Below, in pieces: positions 1 through 13,582 of a stretch of 13,582 nucleotides of DNA. Numbering within the stretch: position 1 is the first letter of the stretch; each line of letters opens with the position of its first letter. Source of the DNA: Promethearchaeota archaeon (GTDB taxonomy: Archaea; Asgardarchaeota; Hermodarchaeia; Hermodarchaeales; Hermodarchaeaceae); the NCBI GenBank assembly GCA_048939245.1, contig JBHLPR010000060.1, positions 1 through 13,582 of the forward strand. Reading direction: 5' to 3'. Under the pieces are notes generated by a model that worked only from the letters and a program-made list of their open reading frames with translations, had not been told where the DNA came from and did not search any database. The translations under genes were made by a program, and so were the position numbers.

Positions 1-331
1 CGATGATGTCGAATTTATTTCGAATTCCACGTTCAACGCCACTGAGTACGTGGCTGGCTGTGAGAATCGGGACTTTGTTTTCTTTGAGGGTTTTTCGATG
101 TTCGGAGAGAAGTTGGTTTTGACCAGGTTGGGTGAAGCCACTCATGTGCGTAACGACGACCAGGTTCACGTTTTTCATAATTTTAAGGGCTTTTACTGCT
201 GTTGCACCAGAAGTTGTGGGAATAATGACGTGGGAGATGCCTAATTTTCTTGCACGCTGATAGGCCAGACGGAGGGTTTGGTCCGTGTTTTTTGCCCCCT
301 TTTCTTCAAAATAAGTGATAGAGACTTTCAT
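1..331 (-). CDS. Pyruvate kinase C-terminal alpha/beta-like domain protein (MTH1675/COG1751-like), runs off the window edge
   Basis: Not in the ORF track. Manual translation from ATG at 331 stays open to base 1: MKVSITYFEEKGAKNTDQTLRLAYQRARKLGISHVIIPTTSGATA...VVVTHMSGF...ILTASHVLSGVERGIRNKF. The YF..G..NT, TSG.TA, VVVTH..GF and H.LSGVER motifs fit this family. Confidence 0.85.
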   Translation of the reverse strand, partial: MKVSITYFEEKGAKNTDQTLRLAYQRARKLGISHVIIPTTSGATAVKALKIMKNVNLVVVTHMSGFTQPGQNQLLSEHRKTLKENKVPILTASHVLSGVERGIRNKFDII

Positions 332-354: not shown

Positions 355-362
355 TTTTTATA
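355..362 (-). promoter_or_regulatory. Candidate TATA box (TATAAAAA) for a leaderless transcript of the 1..331 gene
   Basis: The minus strand reads TATAAAAA, ending about 24 nt upstream of the ATG at 331, which is typical archaeal leaderless spacing. Confidence 0.45.
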
Positions 363-581
363 GAAAACTGCGAGAAGACCCGCCCTAAAGGGCAGGGATG
401 AATCTTGGCGTTTAAATACGCCGCGGGGGAGCTAGGGATGAGCCCCCAGTCGGCGATCCGAGAACCAAGGATGCCGTGATTGGGCAACATCGCTGGAACG
501 GCGAGCTGAGCCTGTGGACCAGTGGGCATAGGCCAACGGGATGAAGCAGGAAGCCCCACTCGTTAGGGCGGGGTAGTTCAC
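362..581 (+). mobile_element. Non-autonomous IS200/IS605-family miniature element (no tnpA or tnpB)
   Basis: Left-end hairpin CCCGCCC-TAAA-GGGCAGGG (379-397) followed by ATGAAT. Right end GAAG-CCCCACTC-GTTA-GGGCGGGG-TAGT-TCAC (550-581), with the GAAG guide and TCAC cleavage motif typical of IS605-group ends. GC-rich island in an AT-rich intergenic region, no ORF. The left boundary is inferred from a TTTAT target-like motif at 357-361 and is uncertain. Confidence 0.8.
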
Positions 582-597
582 AGTTTGGATAAACCTC
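472..597 (+). ncRNA. TnpB omega-RNA (reRNA)-like scaffold plus ~16-nt flanking guide
   Basis: GCCGT...ACGGC 5' stem; GCCTGTGG...GATGAAGCAGG stem (CCTG 511-514 with CAGG 547-550); right-end hairpin 553-574; TGAA (542-545) complementary to TTCA (577-580), as in the omega-RNA pseudoknot. The guide would be AGTTTGGATAAACCTC (582-597). Confidence 0.65.
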
Positions 598-641
598 TAG
601 CCTTTTGGGGAGGGGGGACTATTTTCTGTAAGGTGCTTGAG

Positions 642-1319
642 ATGACGGAGATTCCACAAGATATTGAAGAAACTGTGGTGAACCGTTTTGAAGAGGAAAT
701 GAAGAAGCCTGTACGATTTGCTTTTTTTACCCAAGAGATGGAATGCCTCTTCTGCGCACAGACTCATCAACTCCTTGAATCAGTAGCAGGTCTCTCAGAT
801 AAAATTAGCCTCGAAGTCTATGATTTTGTTAAAGATAAAGAAAAGGCGGATGAATTAGGGATTGATAAGATACCTGCCCTAGCTATTCTAGATGACGAAG
901 ATTATGGGTTGCGGATGTTTGGAATTCCATCCGGATATGAGTTCCAGACGTTGATTGAGGGGATAGTATTGGTTTCGACTGGTGATAGCACCTTGTCTCC
1001 GAAAGCGGAAGCCGCCGTGGCAAAGGCGGCAACCAAGCCGGTGAAAATTCAAGTATTTGTAATTCCCACCTGCCCTGTGTGTCCAGTTGTTGGTGCAATG
1101 GCATTTCAGTTTGCAGTGGTAAATGCCAATATTTCTGTAGATATTGTAGAAATTGCAGAATTTCCCCATTTAGCGAATAAGTACAATGTAATTGGGACGC
1201 CTAAAGTAGTGTTAAATGAAACGGTTCAGTTTGAGGGGCTAGTTCCTCCTAAAGAGTTCTTGACCTTCATTACAAAGGCCGCTCAGGGTTCACCGACAGG
1301 CATTTCCCCTACAATCTGA
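642..1319 (+). CDS. pdo: Protein disulfide oxidoreductase (two thioredoxin folds, glutaredoxin-like domain protein)
   Basis: Two CXXC motifs (CLFC, CPVC), cis-Pro loops KIPA and GTPK, GIPSGYEF family signature. ATG at 642 is preceded by SD-like AGGTG (631-635). Confidence 0.9.
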   Translation: MTEIPQDIEETVVNRFEEEMKKPVRFAFFTQEMECLFCAQTHQLLESVAGLSDKISLEVYDFVKDKEKADELGIDKIPALAILDDEDYGLRMFGIPSGYEFQTLIEGIVLVSTGDSTLSPKAEAAVAKAATKPVKIQVFVIPTCPVCPVVGAMAFQFAVVNANISVDIVEIAEFPHLANKYNVIGTPKVVLNETVQFEGLVPPKEFLTFITKAAQGSPTGISPTI

Positions 1320-3347: not shown

Positions 3348-4379
3348 TTAATCAGAGACCTTCGTGTCCTCAGAGAGGATAATTGGAATTGGGAGATTAC
3401 AGGATGGACAACGCCCGTCCCGAGTTAATCGCACAGAGATGGTTTGAACACCTAAGCGTTCGATGAGAAGCGCGCCACAATTTGCACAAATAGTGTTGGC
3501 TCCTTGATGTCCAGGCACATTACCTAAATAGACATATTTGAGACCAGCCCGTGTGGAGGCTGCAGCGGCGGCTTCAAGTTTCTTGATGGATGTAGGTGGG
3601 AGATTGCTCATTTTGTGATGAGGATAAAACCGTAGTATGTGGAGAGGGGTATTCTCCCCGAGTTCTTCTACAATCCATTGGGCAAGCGTTTCTGCTTCTT
3701 GAATGTCGTCACCAACGTCAGATACCAGGAGATTGGTAATTTCAATATGGATTCCCGCTGCTTTCATGGCTTTAAGGGACTCATAGATTGGATCCACAGA
3801 AGGTACGTTGCAGTATTTTTTGTAGAAAGTGGGATTGGCATTACCTTTGAAATCGACTGTTGCCGCATTAAGATATGGAGCTATTGTATCAACCGCTTCA
3901 GTCGTCATATACCCGTTGGTGACAAAGGTGTTGAAGAGCCCCTTTTCCTGTGCGATTTTCGCAGTATCGAAGGCATATTCAAAGAAAATAGTGGGTTCGG
4001 TGTACGTATAGGATACGCCGGTACAGCCTGTGTTCAAGGCGAGGTTAACAATTTTTTCTGGAGATATATTCCGTCCGATAATCTCACGTTCATGGCTAAT
4101 TTGCCAGTTTTGACAAAAAAGGCAGCGAAAATTGCACCCCACTGTGGCCACAGACATCACTAGGGAACCGGGACGGAAATGCCAGAGTGGTTTTTTCTCA
4201 ATCGGATCGGGATTTGCGGAGCAAGCTTTTCCATAGACTAGCGAGTAGAGAGTGCCGTTCTCATTTTTCCGGACTTGACAATACCCTAGCTTTCCATCAG
4301 CAATAGTGCACCGGCGACTACATAGATAGCACTCGATCTTTTTGTCCTCGAGTGTATTGTATAACATTGCTTCATGCAT
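3348..4379 (-). CDS. amrS: AmmeMemoRadiSam system radical SAM enzyme (PflA-like)
   Basis: N-terminal CYLCSRRC...GYCQVR, DPIEKKPLWHFRPGS, CNFRCLFCQNWQIS (CxxxCxxC), YTYTEP, VTNGY, YVYLGNVPG, C-terminal CxxC...CxxC. Confidence 0.93.
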   Translation of the reverse strand: MHEAMLYNTLEDKKIECYLCSRRCTIADGKLGYCQVRKNENGTLYSLVYGKACSANPDPIEKKPLWHFRPGSLVMSVATVGCNFRCLFCQNWQISHEREIIGRNISPEKIVNLALNTGCTGVSYTYTEPTIFFEYAFDTAKIAQEKGLFNTFVTNGYMTTEAVDTIAPYLNAATVDFKGNANPTFYKKYCNVPSVDPIYESLKAMKAAGIHIEITNLLVSDVGDDIQEAETLAQWIVEELGENTPLHILRFYPHHKMSNLPPTSIKKLEAAAAASTRAGLKYVYLGNVPGHQGANTICANCGALLIERLGVQTISVRLTRDGRCPSCNLPIPIILSEDTKVSD

Positions 4380-7182: not shown

Positions 7183-7761
7183 TTACGTGGGAGTATGAGC
7201 AAGGCTTGGGGTATATTCTGTGAACCCCAACTTATTATGCTGTAAGGCAGAACAGAGAGTGTTAAAAGCTCGTTTCACGTTTTTTCCCGTTTTTGCTGAA
7301 CATGTGATATAGTTTGCGATTTGATGGCGAGCACAAAACAGCTGAATCGCTTTTGGGGAGATTGTCGATTGTAGGTCGGTTTTGTTCCCAACAAGGACAA
7401 TAGCTTGATTTCCGTGACAGATGTTCCAAGATGAGATGAACTCAAGCCATTGGCTTGCTGTTTCGAGCGATTCAGGTTTTGTCACATCAAAGACTAAGAC
7501 TACACCTGTGGCTCCTTGACAAAAGCGTGGCATCAGGCACTGGAATCGTTCCTGCCCACTTAGGTCCCAGATACTGAGGTTGATGGGACCCATTTCACCG
7601 TAACAGATTTTCTGGGCAAAATTGACGCCAATGGTTGGTGTGACCTTGGTGAATTCTTTGAAGACCAGGCTGTTGATCAGACTGGTTTTTCCAACATTCG
7701 TTGCTCCTGCGACGAGCACCTTTGCGAGCGAAATTCTTTCAGCTACCATGGTGATGTTCAT
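7183..7761 (-). CDS. Rab-like small GTPase (Ras superfamily)
   Basis: G1 GATNVGKT, G2 PTIG, G3 WDLSGQ, G4 NKTD, G5 SAK. Start uncertain (7794, 7761 or 7749). Confidence 0.93.
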   Translation of the reverse strand: MNITMVAERISLAKVLVAGATNVGKTSLINSLVFKEFTKVTPTIGVNFAQKICYGEMGPINLSIWDLSGQERFQCLMPRFCQGATGVVLVFDVTKPESLETASQWLEFISSWNICHGNQAIVLVGNKTDLQSTISPKAIQLFCARHQIANYITCSAKTGKNVKRAFNTLCSALQHNKLGFTEYTPSLAHTPT

Positions 7762-7809
7762 TGCATTCCTTGCAATGAGACTTATAGACTCCACAACAAC
7801 AATATTTGT

Positions 7810-9033
7810 TTATACTGGGGAACTAGTTGGTTTTCGATAGAAGTAGACGCCGACTAGAACAATAGATATTACAATCACAAGAGAGATCACAAGTCCCAGT
7901 GTCAAGGGAGCAGTATTGGTTGGAGTGAATTCTTCGATGGCTCGAAACACATAGTCTAAAACAAGTCCGAAAACGTTGATTTCTCCGTCATAGTCGGATG
8001 CGGTCTGTACGATTACAAGATCATATTCTGGGTGGATTATGATCCATTGGCTGTGTAATCCTCGGGCTTCGAAGGTGTCCATCGATATCTGCTTCCACCA
8101 TTGATAGCCATACCCGGTTCCCGTCCATGGCTGAACCATAGAACGCTGCGACTGGGTCACCCATTCGTGGGGAACGATTTGGGAGCCGTCCCATTCGCCA
8201 TCGTTGAGGTAAAGTAGACCAAATTTTGCCATGTCGCGAGGTCGGAGATGTAATTCACTGCCACCATAATTGAGCCCGTTTCGGTCGCGAGTCCAAATCG
8301 CGTGAGTGATTCCAAGTGGACCAAAGAGGTGGTCGAATGCAAATGAGAGGGGGATTTGTCCGGTGGTCTCATGGATGATTCCTGCTAGAAGATGGGAGGC
8401 GCCAGTATTGTAGACCCATGTGGTTCCTGGTTCCGCGACCATAGGTCGATCGAGCATAAATTGGATGCAATCAGCGCTGTATACCATTTGATAAAGATCA
8501 TTTTGTGGGTCAGTGTAGGGATGAGACCATTCATCCCATTCTAGCCCCGCGCGCATATTCAACAGATGCCTTATCGTCATTCGTTGCTTCCTTTCATCTA
8601 GATTTGCAATTGATCGATCTGTGAAAAAAGAACAAACGGGTTCATCTGCATTGGGGATGTAGCCTTCTTCGATGGCAATGCCGATTAAGGCCGAGGTAAA
8701 GCTTTTCGTCACTGAATGGAGGATATGCGAATTGTCAGGACCATAGGAACTTGGATAGTCTTCGTATACGATGTACCCATGGCGAACCACCAAATAGGAA
8801 TCCAAAGGTAAATCCTCATTTCGAATATGGTCGTGTAATTGCTGAAGAACTGCAGAACTCATCCCTTGTAACTGCGGAGGAGAAACCCGCCATTCATCGG
8901 TTGGCCAATAATCTGGTGTCAACAAAAGTTGAGTACCGCTACTCGTAGGGGGAATAACCCATAGAGAAGTGAGCGTAAGTGGTAATAGAAGGAGAAACCA
9001 CCGTCGAAAAGTCACGCTTACCACATCCAACAA
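7810..9033 (-). CDS. Membrane-anchored serine hydrolase, beta-lactamase class C/AmpC-like family
   Basis: SVTK (SxxK), WVYNT (YxN/T), LLNMRAGL, LRPRDMAKFG, GYGYQWW; N-terminal signal-like segment; C-terminal TM helix followed by RK. Confidence 0.9.
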   Translation of the reverse strand: MLDVVSVTFRRWFLLLLPLTLTSLWVIPPTSSGTQLLLTPDYWPTDEWRVSPPQLQGMSSAVLQQLHDHIRNEDLPLDSYLVVRHGYIVYEDYPSSYGPDNSHILHSVTKSFTSALIGIAIEEGYIPNADEPVCSFFTDRSIANLDERKQRMTIRHLLNMRAGLEWDEWSHPYTDPQNDLYQMVYSADCIQFMLDRPMVAEPGTTWVYNTGASHLLAGIIHETTGQIPLSFAFDHLFGPLGITHAIWTRDRNGLNYGGSELHLRPRDMAKFGLLYLNDGEWDGSQIVPHEWVTQSQRSMVQPWTGTGYGYQWWKQISMDTFEARGLHSQWIIIHPEYDLVIVQTASDYDGEINVFGLVLDYVFRAIEEFTPTNTAPLTLGLVISLVIVISIVLVGVYFYRKPTSSPV

Positions 9034-10110: not shown

Positions 10111-11907
10111 ATGCGATTCAAAACCAATCTAAGCCGTCAGTTCAAGAAACGAAAATTAGATGTTAGCACAAAACGTTTGATTCGTTTGAATGTATTAGCT
10201 GTGGTAATTGGTCTAGTTGCTGGATTCGGAGCCGTAGGCTTTCGTTACTTGATTGAAATCATGATTGCTCTGTTTGACTATCTTGGATGTATTGGGTTCT
10301 TTGTAGGGATGGTCTGGGTTCCGCTAGGATTGGTCATCATGCCCGTAGTAGGCGGATTAGTTGTTGGATTTCTCACAACAAAATTTGCGCCTGAAGCAGA
10401 GGGACATGGAGTACCAGAAATTATGACAGCAATTGCTCTAAATCAAGGTAAAATTCGTCCTCGTGTTCCAGTTATCAAAGCCATTGCCTCTGCGTTTACG
10501 ATAGGATCGGGAGGAAGTGCTGGGGCAGAAGGACCTATTGGGCAAATTGGTGCCGGCGTCGGATCAAGCCTTGGTCAGTTATTGAAGCTCAGTGAGCCCG
10601 AATTACGGGTATTAACCGTATGTGGGATTTCTGCAGGTATAGCAGCAATCTTTAATACCCCCATTGGTGGCGCCCTCTTTGGATTGGAAGTGGTGCTAAT
10701 TGGCATCGAAGCCATTGCAGTTATTCCAGTGCTGTTATCGACAGTCGTTGGCACCTCGGTGGCGTCATGGTTTTTTGGCCTGGATCCCTGGTTCACGGTT
10801 CCCCAATATTTTGTGCCCTATAGTTGGGAATTGTCACTTTTCATTGTTCTTGGATTACTCTTAGGGCTATTTAGCATCATCTGGGTGAAAGTGCTTTATT
10901 CAACTGAATTATTATTTCAGCGGATTCGAATACCCCGAATACTCAAACCGGCATTGGGGGGCATAATTGTTGGATTGATCATTATTTGGTTTCCGCACGT
11001 AGCCAGAGTTGGCTACAACTGGATAGAATACGCAATGATGGGATTCCTTGCAGTTGGCCCTATGATCGTATTGATGGTGATGAAACTTTTCAGTACCTCA
11101 GGAGCCATTGGCTCAGGGGGATCAGGTGGCGTATTTGCTCCCTCCCTGTACATGGGCGCTATGGGAGGAGGTGTAATTGGAACCCTCTTTTTCCTTCTGA
11201 ACCCAGGAATGGTGACCGCACCCATGGCATTTGCAGTTGTTGGGATGGCTGCCTTATTTGCCGGTGCAGCACGTGCCCCCCTGACGTGCATCATCATGAT
11301 TGCAGAAATGACGCGAGACTACTTTCTCCTAGTTCCTTTGATGGCCGCTTGTGCAACAAGCTACTTCATCAATCTCTTGTTCTCGCGCAATTCTATCTAC
11401 ACCGAAAAATTAGCCGCCAAAGGTATCCGTCTGAAACATCAGTTAATCGCTGACATCATTGATACCATCACCGTTGACCAAATCATGCGCACCCGCGATA
11501 TCGTCGTCGCCCGACCCCAAATGTATGCCTTCCAAGTCACCGAACTCGCCGACCAAACCCACCACAGCACCCTCCCCGTCGTCGAAGGCGAACGATTGAT
11601 TGGACTTGTCACCTTCCGCCGAGCCTACAAATGCCTTCGAGACGATTTGCCACCCGAAGACACCACCGTAACCAAATTACTCATACCTGCACCCACCGTC
11701 TATCCTGACGACTCAGCTCACACAGCGCTTGACAAGATGATCGAATCCGGAGAAAGCATAGTCTGCGTCGTCGATCGTAAGGACCCTACCCGATTTCTTG
11801 GAATAATATCTCACGGTGACATTCTCCAAGCCCACAACATCGAATGGATTCAACGCCAAACCCTCGGACCAGAACATTCCCCAGTCTACCCCGTATCCGA
11901 AGAATAA
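10111..11907 (+). CDS. CLC-family chloride channel/transporter with C-terminal CBS pair
   Basis: GHGVP, GGSAGAEGP, FNTPIGG, GGVFAPSL, RAPLT and SIY motifs; many TM helices; two CBS domains (LPVV...IGLVT; GIISHGDIL). Confidence 0.93.
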   Translation: MRFKTNLSRQFKKRKLDVSTKRLIRLNVLAVVIGLVAGFGAVGFRYLIEIMIALFDYLGCIGFFVGMVWVPLGLVIMPVVGGLVVGFLTTKFAPEAEGHGVPEIMTAIALNQGKIRPRVPVIKAIASAFTIGSGGSAGAEGPIGQIGAGVGSSLGQLLKLSEPELRVLTVCGISAGIAAIFNTPIGGALFGLEVVLIGIEAIAVIPVLLSTVVGTSVASWFFGLDPWFTVPQYFVPYSWELSLFIVLGLLLGLFSIIWVKVLYSTELLFQRIRIPRILKPALGGIIVGLIIIWFPHVARVGYNWIEYAMMGFLAVGPMIVLMVMKLFSTSGAIGSGGSGGVFAPSLYMGAMGGGVIGTLFFLLNPGMVTAPMAFAVVGMAALFAGAARAPLTCIIMIAEMTRDYFLLVPLMAACATSYFINLLFSRNSIYTEKLAAKGIRLKHQLIADIIDTITVDQIMRTRDIVVARPQMYAFQVTELADQTHHSTLPVVEGERLIGLVTFRRAYKCLRDDLPPEDTTVTKLLIPAPTVYPDDSAHTALDKMIESGESIVCVVDRKDPTRFLGIISHGDILQAHNIEWIQRQTLGPEHSPVYPVSEE

Positions 11908-12992: not shown

Positions 12993-13150
12993 GTGGTCGT
13001 ATACCCAGAATTAATCTCGCGCCAGAACCAGCGCATATGGCTCCTTTCGCAACCGACACACTTAGGCGGTACGTGGCGGCCTGCTCAACATCTCGCCGAA
13101 GCTTGATGCGTACACAGCCGCTCGTTCAAACCGGTCTTTTACCGGAGCCT

Positions 13151-13216
13151 TTGTCCACGGTTCACCGTTCTAGTCACCTAGCCCAGTGTGGACTACAAAT
13201 CCAATAACCATGGAAT
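13151..13216 (-). other. Expansion segment at the helix 98/ES39 position of 23S rRNA (66 nt)
   Basis: Lies between the 3' strand of H94 (AAUCACCC) and the 5' strand of H99 (AGGC); contains GUCCAC/GUGGAC, CUAG/CUAG and UCCA/UGGA stems. Confidence 0.8.
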
Positions 13217-13237
13217 GGGTGATTCGTCTCGGGACCC

Positions 13238-13268
<31 letters not shown>

Positions 13269-13403
13269 GGACACAGCGTGGCTGCCCGGCGATGCCCCAT
13301 CGGACAACCGGTACACCATAGGCTGCGATCCGCCGTTCCTCTCGTACCGAGCGGACCTTACCCTCAATCACCCAACGCACCCAAAAGAGAGAATCCAACC
13401 TGT

Positions 13404-13544
<141 letters not shown>

Positions 13545-13582
13545 TTAACAGGCGTACAGCCTTACCCTTGGGAGCTAATGCA

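Follow-up and report, generated by a model that had tools for sequence, protein, structure and literature searches.

A protein-less IS605/IS1341 mini-element of Hermodarchaeota with a conserved, predicted omega-RNA scaffold

Between the genes for a PK_C-domain protein and for a thioredoxin-fold protein disulfide oxidoreductase (pdo), an archaeal genome carries a short segment with the ends of an IS605-type transposon and no evident protein, and the locus thus raises the question of whether it is a decayed remnant, a mobile gene for a TnpB guide RNA, or an RNA that the host has put to use. The stretch analysed here, referred to as the window, comprises 13,582 nucleotides and is contig C69 of a 2.52-Mb genome that is 88% complete. 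A first-pass annotation, made from the letters alone, had read positions 362-601 as a mobile omega-RNA cassette that depends on proteins supplied in trans, and had proposed that its dispersed copies form a guide repertoire that either protects the element or, together with a nuclease-dead TnpB, acts in regulation.

Boundaries, insertion site and ends

The segment 362-581 is a protein-less IS605/IS1341 mini-element of Hermodarchaeota, of the kind known as palindrome-associated transposable elements (PATEs; Table 1). Its boundaries follow from relatives without the insertion: excising 362-581 leaves an intergenic gap of 90 nt, equal to the gap in two relatives (G014 and G003), the excision joint matches the empty sites in G008 and G001 without a scar, and the PK_C and pdo genes are adjacent in eight relatives by synteny comparison. 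The span given in the first-pass annotation is thereby shortened, since its last part, 582-601, is host DNA beyond the 3' boundary. The features that it described (TTTAT, hairpins about 155 nt apart, a TATA-like sequence, CCTG/CAGG, the terminal TCAC and the quoted flank) are located where it placed them, and the Asgard host that it supposed is borne out by the relatives with the same motif, which are Hermodarchaeota.

The element has near-terminal palindromes separated by 155 nt, no terminal inverted repeats (a repeat search found none joining the termini of 362-581) and no target duplication, and it inserts 3' of a target of 4-6 nt, with TTAT at the left junction in 30 of the 36 aligned copies. 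It is too short for a transposase, with no tnpA or tnpB ORF within 362-581; its ends are related to those of a protein-coding IS605 element, and it occurs at multiple sites as a unit. A long minus-strand ORF (2-559) that overlaps the element was rejected as a spurious upstream extension of the PK_C gene, the true start of which is at 331. The element seems to be present at the same site in a strain with flanks about 91% identical (contigs of consistent depth, both junctions), which means that the insertion is not recent. Four DNA sequencing runs available in contig form yielded no joint of an empty allele, a result that says nothing on whether such alleles are absent. On the right, a motif at 591-606 upstream of pdo is conserved in all 11 relatives examined and is probably a promoter element; the mini-element now puts 220 bp between this motif and the divergent PK_C gene.

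Table 1. Features of the mini-element and its surroundings (positions in the window)
Feature	Position	Strand	Basis and remarks
PK_C-domain gene, left neighbour	1-331	-	Pfam PF02887; syntenic in relatives; runs off the window; transcribed away from the element
TTTAT, TnpA target and predicted TnpB TAM	357-361	+	Host DNA outside the element; empty-site alignment
Mini-element (PATE), 220 bp	362-581	+	No target duplication; boundaries from empty sites
Left end: GAGAAGA with DNA guide AAGA (375-378), then hairpin (379-397)	372-397	+	Near-identical to the left end of a full-length parent (G011:C41)
Archaeal promoter: BRE-like conserved hexamer and TATA box (411-418, TTTAAATA)	405-418	+	Conservation; fixed spacing to the start
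Omega-RNA scaffold, 142 nt (predicted)	440-581	+	+1 at G440 inferred; covariance model, 137 bits
Mini-specific 5' hairpin	445-484	+	Basal helix with compensatory change in 5 of 6 pairs
Nexus hairpin, loop GAAC (496-499)	490-504	+	Predicted pseudoknot with GTTC (576-579); loop-tail covariation
CCTG/CAGG stem (511-514/547-550) around variable hairpin (519-539)	511-550	+	Two mismatches in the window copy's hairpin
Right end: DNA guide GAAG (550-553), hairpin (553-574), cleavage site TCAC (578-581)	550-581	+	Conservation; covariation
Predicted 16-nt guide (host flank)	582-597	+	Overlaps the 591-606 motif upstream of pdo; same sequence past the empty site in relatives
Thioredoxin-fold protein disulfide oxidoreductase (pdo), right neighbour	642-1319	+	Pfam PF13192
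Thioredoxin-reductase-like gene, after pdo	to 2358	+	Pfam PF07992

Just 5' of the left and right hairpins stand AAGA and GAAG, respectively, the tetranucleotides to be expected under the IS608 guide rule if cleavage occurs at TTAT and TCAC. In the window copy the DNA fold of the left hairpin (-6.3 kcal/mol) is among the strongest of the 36; across copies, this hairpin is 63.6% paired, a value that does not beat shuffles (43 of 500), and it folds at -3 kcal/mol or better in 8 of 36 copies, versus 25 of 36 for the right hairpin. Since intact full-length parents also show imperfect left ends, tolerance on the part of TnpA may explain part of this weak pairing. Comparative evidence indicates that conservation of the RNA part extends to copies in which the signal for mobility is decayed.

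Promoter, predicted transcript and RNA structure

The TATA-like sequence noticed by the first-pass annotation belongs to a fixed-spacing archaeal promoter anatomy. In the 36-copy alignment, identity to the consensus is 92.5% over the TATA box against 46% over the spacer that follows; a pattern search places the first conserved purine 28-30 nt from the TATA start in 30 of 34 copies, three more (the window copy included) being mis-hits of the pattern that the alignment puts at 29 nt each, with one outlier. Conservation sets in at a pyrimidine-purine step 29 nt past the TATA start, and from this conserved spacing the +1 is predicted at G440. In the parents the tnpB ATG lies 30 nt past the equivalent TATA, so that the mini-element's RNA would start where the tnpB mRNA would. 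From this anatomy we infer that the 440-581 RNA is expressed; a bacterial sigma-70 scan is ill-suited to the archaeal promoter at 405-418. Two hairpins are private to the window copy and are not conserved among the other aligned copies: the first (407-422) surrounds the TATA box, and the second (426-448) straddles the predicted start.

The predicted transcript has the make-up of an omega-RNA, with a nexus pseudoknotted to the scaffold's 3' end, further stems, a right-end hairpin and a variable guide derived from the right flank: pairwise identity between copies drops from 0.93 to 0.26 after TCAC. Across 38 named scaffold pairs, 93.2% of the cells are paired, which 0 of 500 shuffles reach (slid controls, 24-46%), and 19 of the 38 pairs show changes on both sides, with the proviso that relatedness may inflate some covariation measures, the pair-counting ones being robust. 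The covariance model proposed by the first-pass annotation was built and gives the window copy 137 bits, where the best copy reaches 160 and three of the four source-genome copies exceed 130; the window copy departs from the consensus through mismatches located in its variable hairpin and close to the start. The 9-nt loop of the 5' hairpin, GAGAACCAA (460-468), is near-invariant (94% identical to the consensus), and the parents bear a different, UUCG-type hairpin in its place. The sequence of the nexus stem is wholly replaced in the parents with pairing retained, helices 5 and 6 are paired at 95-96% over copies, the right-end tail is 99% conserved, and the right hairpin has compensatory changes in 6 of 9 pairs.

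Because the pseudoknot columns are nearly invariant among the mini-elements, the pseudoknot was tested on wider relatives. The fourth nexus-loop base is G in 9 of 9 scaffolds ending GCTCAC, eight of which come from one lineage and the ninth of which is an independent change in a parent-type element; the 39 + 8 scored scaffolds with a GTTCAC end have A there or a loop of the common GGAAC type. TGAA (542-545), for which a pseudoknot with TTCA had been proposed, does not track this change of tail. While the stems of the scaffold that the first-pass annotation called intact do covary, its pseudoknot is thus to be corrected to a predicted pairing of GAAC with GTTC. The ISDra2 structure likewise replaced a predicted pairing by a nexus-loop pseudoknot (PMC10097598), which has been published as a feature across TnpB systems. 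The minimum-energy fold of 362-581, in which the two ends pair together, was dropped in favour of the covariation structure, and a K-turn reading of the 5' hairpin was set aside on inspection, the consensus not fitting it. Rfam returned nothing at gathering level over the element, only a weak, below-threshold match to RAGATH-18 (E 0.086), and no family match for the GAGAACCAA loop.

Related copies, parents and partner proteins

DNA, pattern and covariance-model searches within the genus located the family, of which 36 copies from 7 genomes were aligned (15 from G006, 10 from G011 and 4 from the source genome), and detected no mini copies in four genus genomes. The source genome has three further copies (on C78, C19 and C53, the last without a left end), and related copies in it match at E 1e-25 to 1e-28. 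The dispersed copies expected by the first-pass annotation, each with its own flank-derived guide, are present. One source-genome copy is sister to a copy at a different site in a distant species (support 100/97); together with the single layout at different sites, this argues for movement of the mini-element as a unit and against its repeated origin through separate deletions. Orientation relative to neighbouring genes is divergent in 15 of 30 cases, a noisy count that rests on ORF calling.

Terminal-only hybrids of about 45 bp, in which the left tip is joined to the right hairpin after TTTAT, occur in the source genome at C74:39319-39363 and C78:5251-5295 and resemble the core-deleted PATEs of Haloquadratum. 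Other Asgard archaea have protein-less omega-RNA elements from different TnpB parents (L150-L154 and L157 in G016; L016 and L028 in G027; L019, L030 and L036 in G040), and those of G016 are without the 5' hairpin and end in GCTCAC. With independent mini-elements from other TnpB parents both in a sister genus and elsewhere in the phylum, the layout evidently recurs.

The parent is likely a tnpB-only element of about 1.3 kb, found in related genomes with near-identical ends (G011:C41, with its TnpB at L070:1494-2696 on the minus strand). Its TnpB matches ISDra2 TnpB (E 7e-68) with the catalytic residues aligned, and the RuvC D-E-D triad is intact in 11 of 11 parent-type frames spanning the motifs, which speaks against the nuclease-dead partner envisaged earlier. 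In sequence, the nexus stem of the parent is not that of the mini-element, and the search for a full-length element with the latter's nexus and 5' hairpin came back negative (genomes and metagenomes gave only mini-elements, viral contigs none), so that TnpB cognacy is deduced from the shared ends and core. The two genomes richest in mini-elements contain several parents, four genomes have neither, and those without a parent mostly carry degenerate mini-elements.

The search for tnpA and tnpB loci with the same ends, which the first-pass annotation had recommended, thus succeeded for parent-type tnpB in relatives and for neither gene in the source assembly: at 88% completeness, this yielded no parent-type tnpB (tblastn, six-frame profile search) and no Y1 tnpA (family search, tblastn). 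Within the genus, tnpA occurs in 1 of 15 genomes, with different ends; tnpA loci with similar right ends, L212 for example, exist elsewhere in the phylum. The source genome has six TnpBs with other end types, namely three IS607-like, two ending GTAGTTCAC, which use a different scaffold, and one ending GCTCAC. At the position usual for RuvC-II the TnpBs on C54 and C88 (L004 and L005) carry Gly, but a Glu precedes their zinc finger, on account of which they are not clearly dead; the right ends of these tnpB loci also show a GAAC loop and a GTTCAC tail. A weak TnpB-family match in most genus genomes proved to be the zinc ribbon of TFB.

Retention in trans, rival readings and known systems

In our judgement the mini-element is probably a selfish omega-RNA cassette, which borrows an active TnpB to cut empty alleles and gets copied back. 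It would be a non-autonomous derivative of a tnpB-only IS605-family (IS1341-group) element in which a short hairpin replaced the tnpB frame, with the result that the element's archaeal promoter would fire straight into the omega-RNA. The distribution of copies shows that the element spread as a whole, entering TTTAT sites without duplicating them, and such scarless insertion would imply a Y1 TnpA acting in trans, although TnpA is rare in the genus. Transcription from G440 through TCAC into the flank would, to judge from the promoter anatomy, give the scaffold and a guide of about 16 nt; a nuclease-active TnpB of a full-length relative would then bind this RNA and cut only element-free alleles, in which TTTAT abuts a match to the guide, and repair from the filled copy would re-install the mini-element, along the lines of the TnpB homing/retention model (Meers et al., 10.1101/2023.03.14.532601). 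Selfish retention of this kind would keep promoter and scaffold under selection after the left end has decayed. The earlier reading as a mobile, protein-less cassette dependent on proteins in trans is supported, and of the roles proposed with it the protection of the element itself appears to fit best.

The cognate TnpB not having been found in the source assembly, the window copy may currently be an orphan. A reading in which the family was once functional and this copy is slowly decaying, its partner protein gone from the genome, would also accommodate the missing tnpB and tnpA, the mismatches of this copy's variable hairpin and start region, the age of the insertion as judged from the related strain, and the decayed copies of parent-less genomes. 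We nonetheless hold it to be unlikely, since the window copy retains both ends, the TATA box, nexus, pseudoknot and loop intact and has one of the strongest left hairpins, since most source-genome copies score highly against the covariance model, and since the assembly is incomplete and repeats often go unassembled.

An older insertion bears on selection in place. Four species have in common a mini-element inserted into a TATA-like motif between tRNA-Leu and rpl3 (L080, L031, L147 and L173), the source-genome copy being C53:49935-50074 (L080). Three of these copies are 69-75% identical from TATA to end, against 38-42% at fourfold sites of rpl3. The insertion is patchy: sister species are without it, and the four carriers are rejected as one clade. 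Such a patchy and conserved insertion is as expected for homing into a conserved site, and the pattern is compatible with transfer of a filled allele among lineages as well as with a long-standing polymorphism. Empty alleles have kept the flank motif, whereas in filled alleles it has drifted, which means that the guide is not being preserved; and as the guides there match empty alleles poorly, homing should weaken, which leaves the strong conservation of the scaffold not fully explained. All four filled alleles share sequence beside the TATA box, and in the source-genome copy, with its left end deleted, 45 nt separate the element's TATA box from the start of the tRNA; in empty alleles this distance is about 48 nt. 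In G006, G002 and G005 (L178, L179 and L184) the same intergenic region is occupied by another type of tnpB element, its guide covering the rpl3 promoter-like motif.

We give a small chance to the idea that mini-elements are long-lived guide-RNA genes selected in place irrespective of their mobility, through interspecies homing into conserved promoter sites, as the patchy tRNA-Leu/rpl3 insertion would suggest, or through host co-option by way of the GAGAACCAA loop and a protein partner; if true, host co-option would be an early step from a selfish OMEGA RNA to a host RNA-guided system. Roles without guiding are improbable as well, whether as a decoy for TnpB or TnpA, as a ligand of a host protein through the 9-nt loop, or as a replacement TATA for a neighbouring gene with a promoter region that the insertion has divided. 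They could draw on the invariant loop, which the parents lack, on the sequence shared by the filled tRNA-Leu alleles and the TATA spacing at that site in the source genome, and on PATE-derived RNA that is expressed in haloarchaea and has been proposed as a TnpA competitor (PMC4615843); promoter donation, however, fails to explain why the TnpB-binding features (nexus, pseudoknot and 3' tail) are conserved, the independent mini-elements of the sister genus are without the 5' hairpin, and the loop has no family match.

The selfish cassette is also preferred over a host-domesticated repertoire, in which a TnpB that is dead or has been put to a new use would be steered by the RNAs to promoters of the host or to invaders. 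For the four source-genome guides no TAM-adjacent target was found beyond background (best seed 6-7 nt; random 5-8), and scans of viral contigs gave one chance-level match, to a phage terminase and with TTTAT incomplete, two other guides having no match. Guides that are plain flank without TAM-adjacent targets leave the regulatory repertoire unsupported, and the drift of the guide at the old shared insertion likewise speaks against a selected set of guides. That promoter and scaffold outlast the left end, that the old insertion is conserved well above neutral sites and that guides often overlap promoter-like motifs would suit domestication, but the last follows from a TATA-like insertion target, and with guides drifting in filled alleles while the same motif is kept in empty ones, no dead parent-type TnpB among 11 frames, no single-copy tnpB common to the whole genus (the weak match in most genomes being TFB) and four genus genomes showing no mini copy, domestication is very improbable.

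The idea of a protein-less omega-RNA element is not new, as both omega-RNA-bearing PATEs and stand-alone omega-RNAs have been published. PATEs of the IS200/IS605 family (Dyall-Smith 2011, PMC3119063), some of which encode an omega-RNA used in trans by TnpB (Meers 2023, 10.1101/2023.03.14.532601), share with the elements described here the subterminal hairpins, the lack of terminal inverted repeats and of target duplication, the transposase-less length, heterogeneous copies, terminal-only products of core deletion and the provision of RNA for TnpB in trans. The Hermodarchaeota mini-elements differ in a resolved fixed-spacing TATA promoter, a dedicated 5' hairpin with an invariant loop, an Asgard host and evidence that selection acts on the RNA once the left end has decayed; the literature searched held no description of the fixed-spacing TATA, the 5' hairpin loop or the post-decay selection. 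Stand-alone omega-RNAs of OMEGA systems (Altae-Tran 2023, PMC10691335), for which function in trans was shown and the biological role stated to be unknown, are likewise mobilised RNA loci without effector or transposase; they are trans-active, whereas the compatible effector of the present elements is known from relatives' sequences and not from the source assembly. With the omega-RNAs of ISDra2 TnpB (PMC10097598) and Sulfolobus TnpB7, the guide of which follows UUCAC (PMC11043419), the predicted scaffold shares the nexus-tail pseudoknot, the second stem, the terminal hairpin and the position of the guide after UUCAC; it differs in having no overlapping tnpB ORF, in its predicted TAM TTTAT, and in a putative primary promoter in place of processing from tnpB mRNA. 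The TldR/dCas12f regulators (10.1101/2023.11.30.569447) also combine an omega-RNA scaffold with a guide overlapping promoter-like DNA, but TldR loci have a dead RuvC and no transposon ends, whereas here the ends are present, the parent RuvC is intact, and no second target of the guides was found above background.

The mini-elements do not, then, establish a new kind of system, and what is distinctive is the 5' hairpin together with conservation in place. They are a well-resolved natural case, with a predicted start, a 142-nt scaffold, a predicted TAM, candidate active TnpBs and reconstructable empty alleles, which, along with the post-decay conservation, makes trans-guided retention testable in a heterologous host.

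Elsewhere in the window, the translation of 2-76 is identical (100%, 25 residues) to that of the terminal part of contig C42; C69 and C42 therefore probably join inside the PK_C gene. The minus strand encodes a Ras-family small GTPase, typical of Asgard archaea, at 7183-7794 (PF00071, E 1e-36), and, judged by eye from the translations, a radical-SAM protein at 3348-4379 and a serine-hydrolase/beta-lactamase-fold protein at 7810-9033, with a CLC-type channel with CBS domains, likewise recognised by eye, on the plus strand at 10111-11907. The contig ends in the 3' part of an archaeal large-subunit rRNA gene (13050-13582, minus strand).
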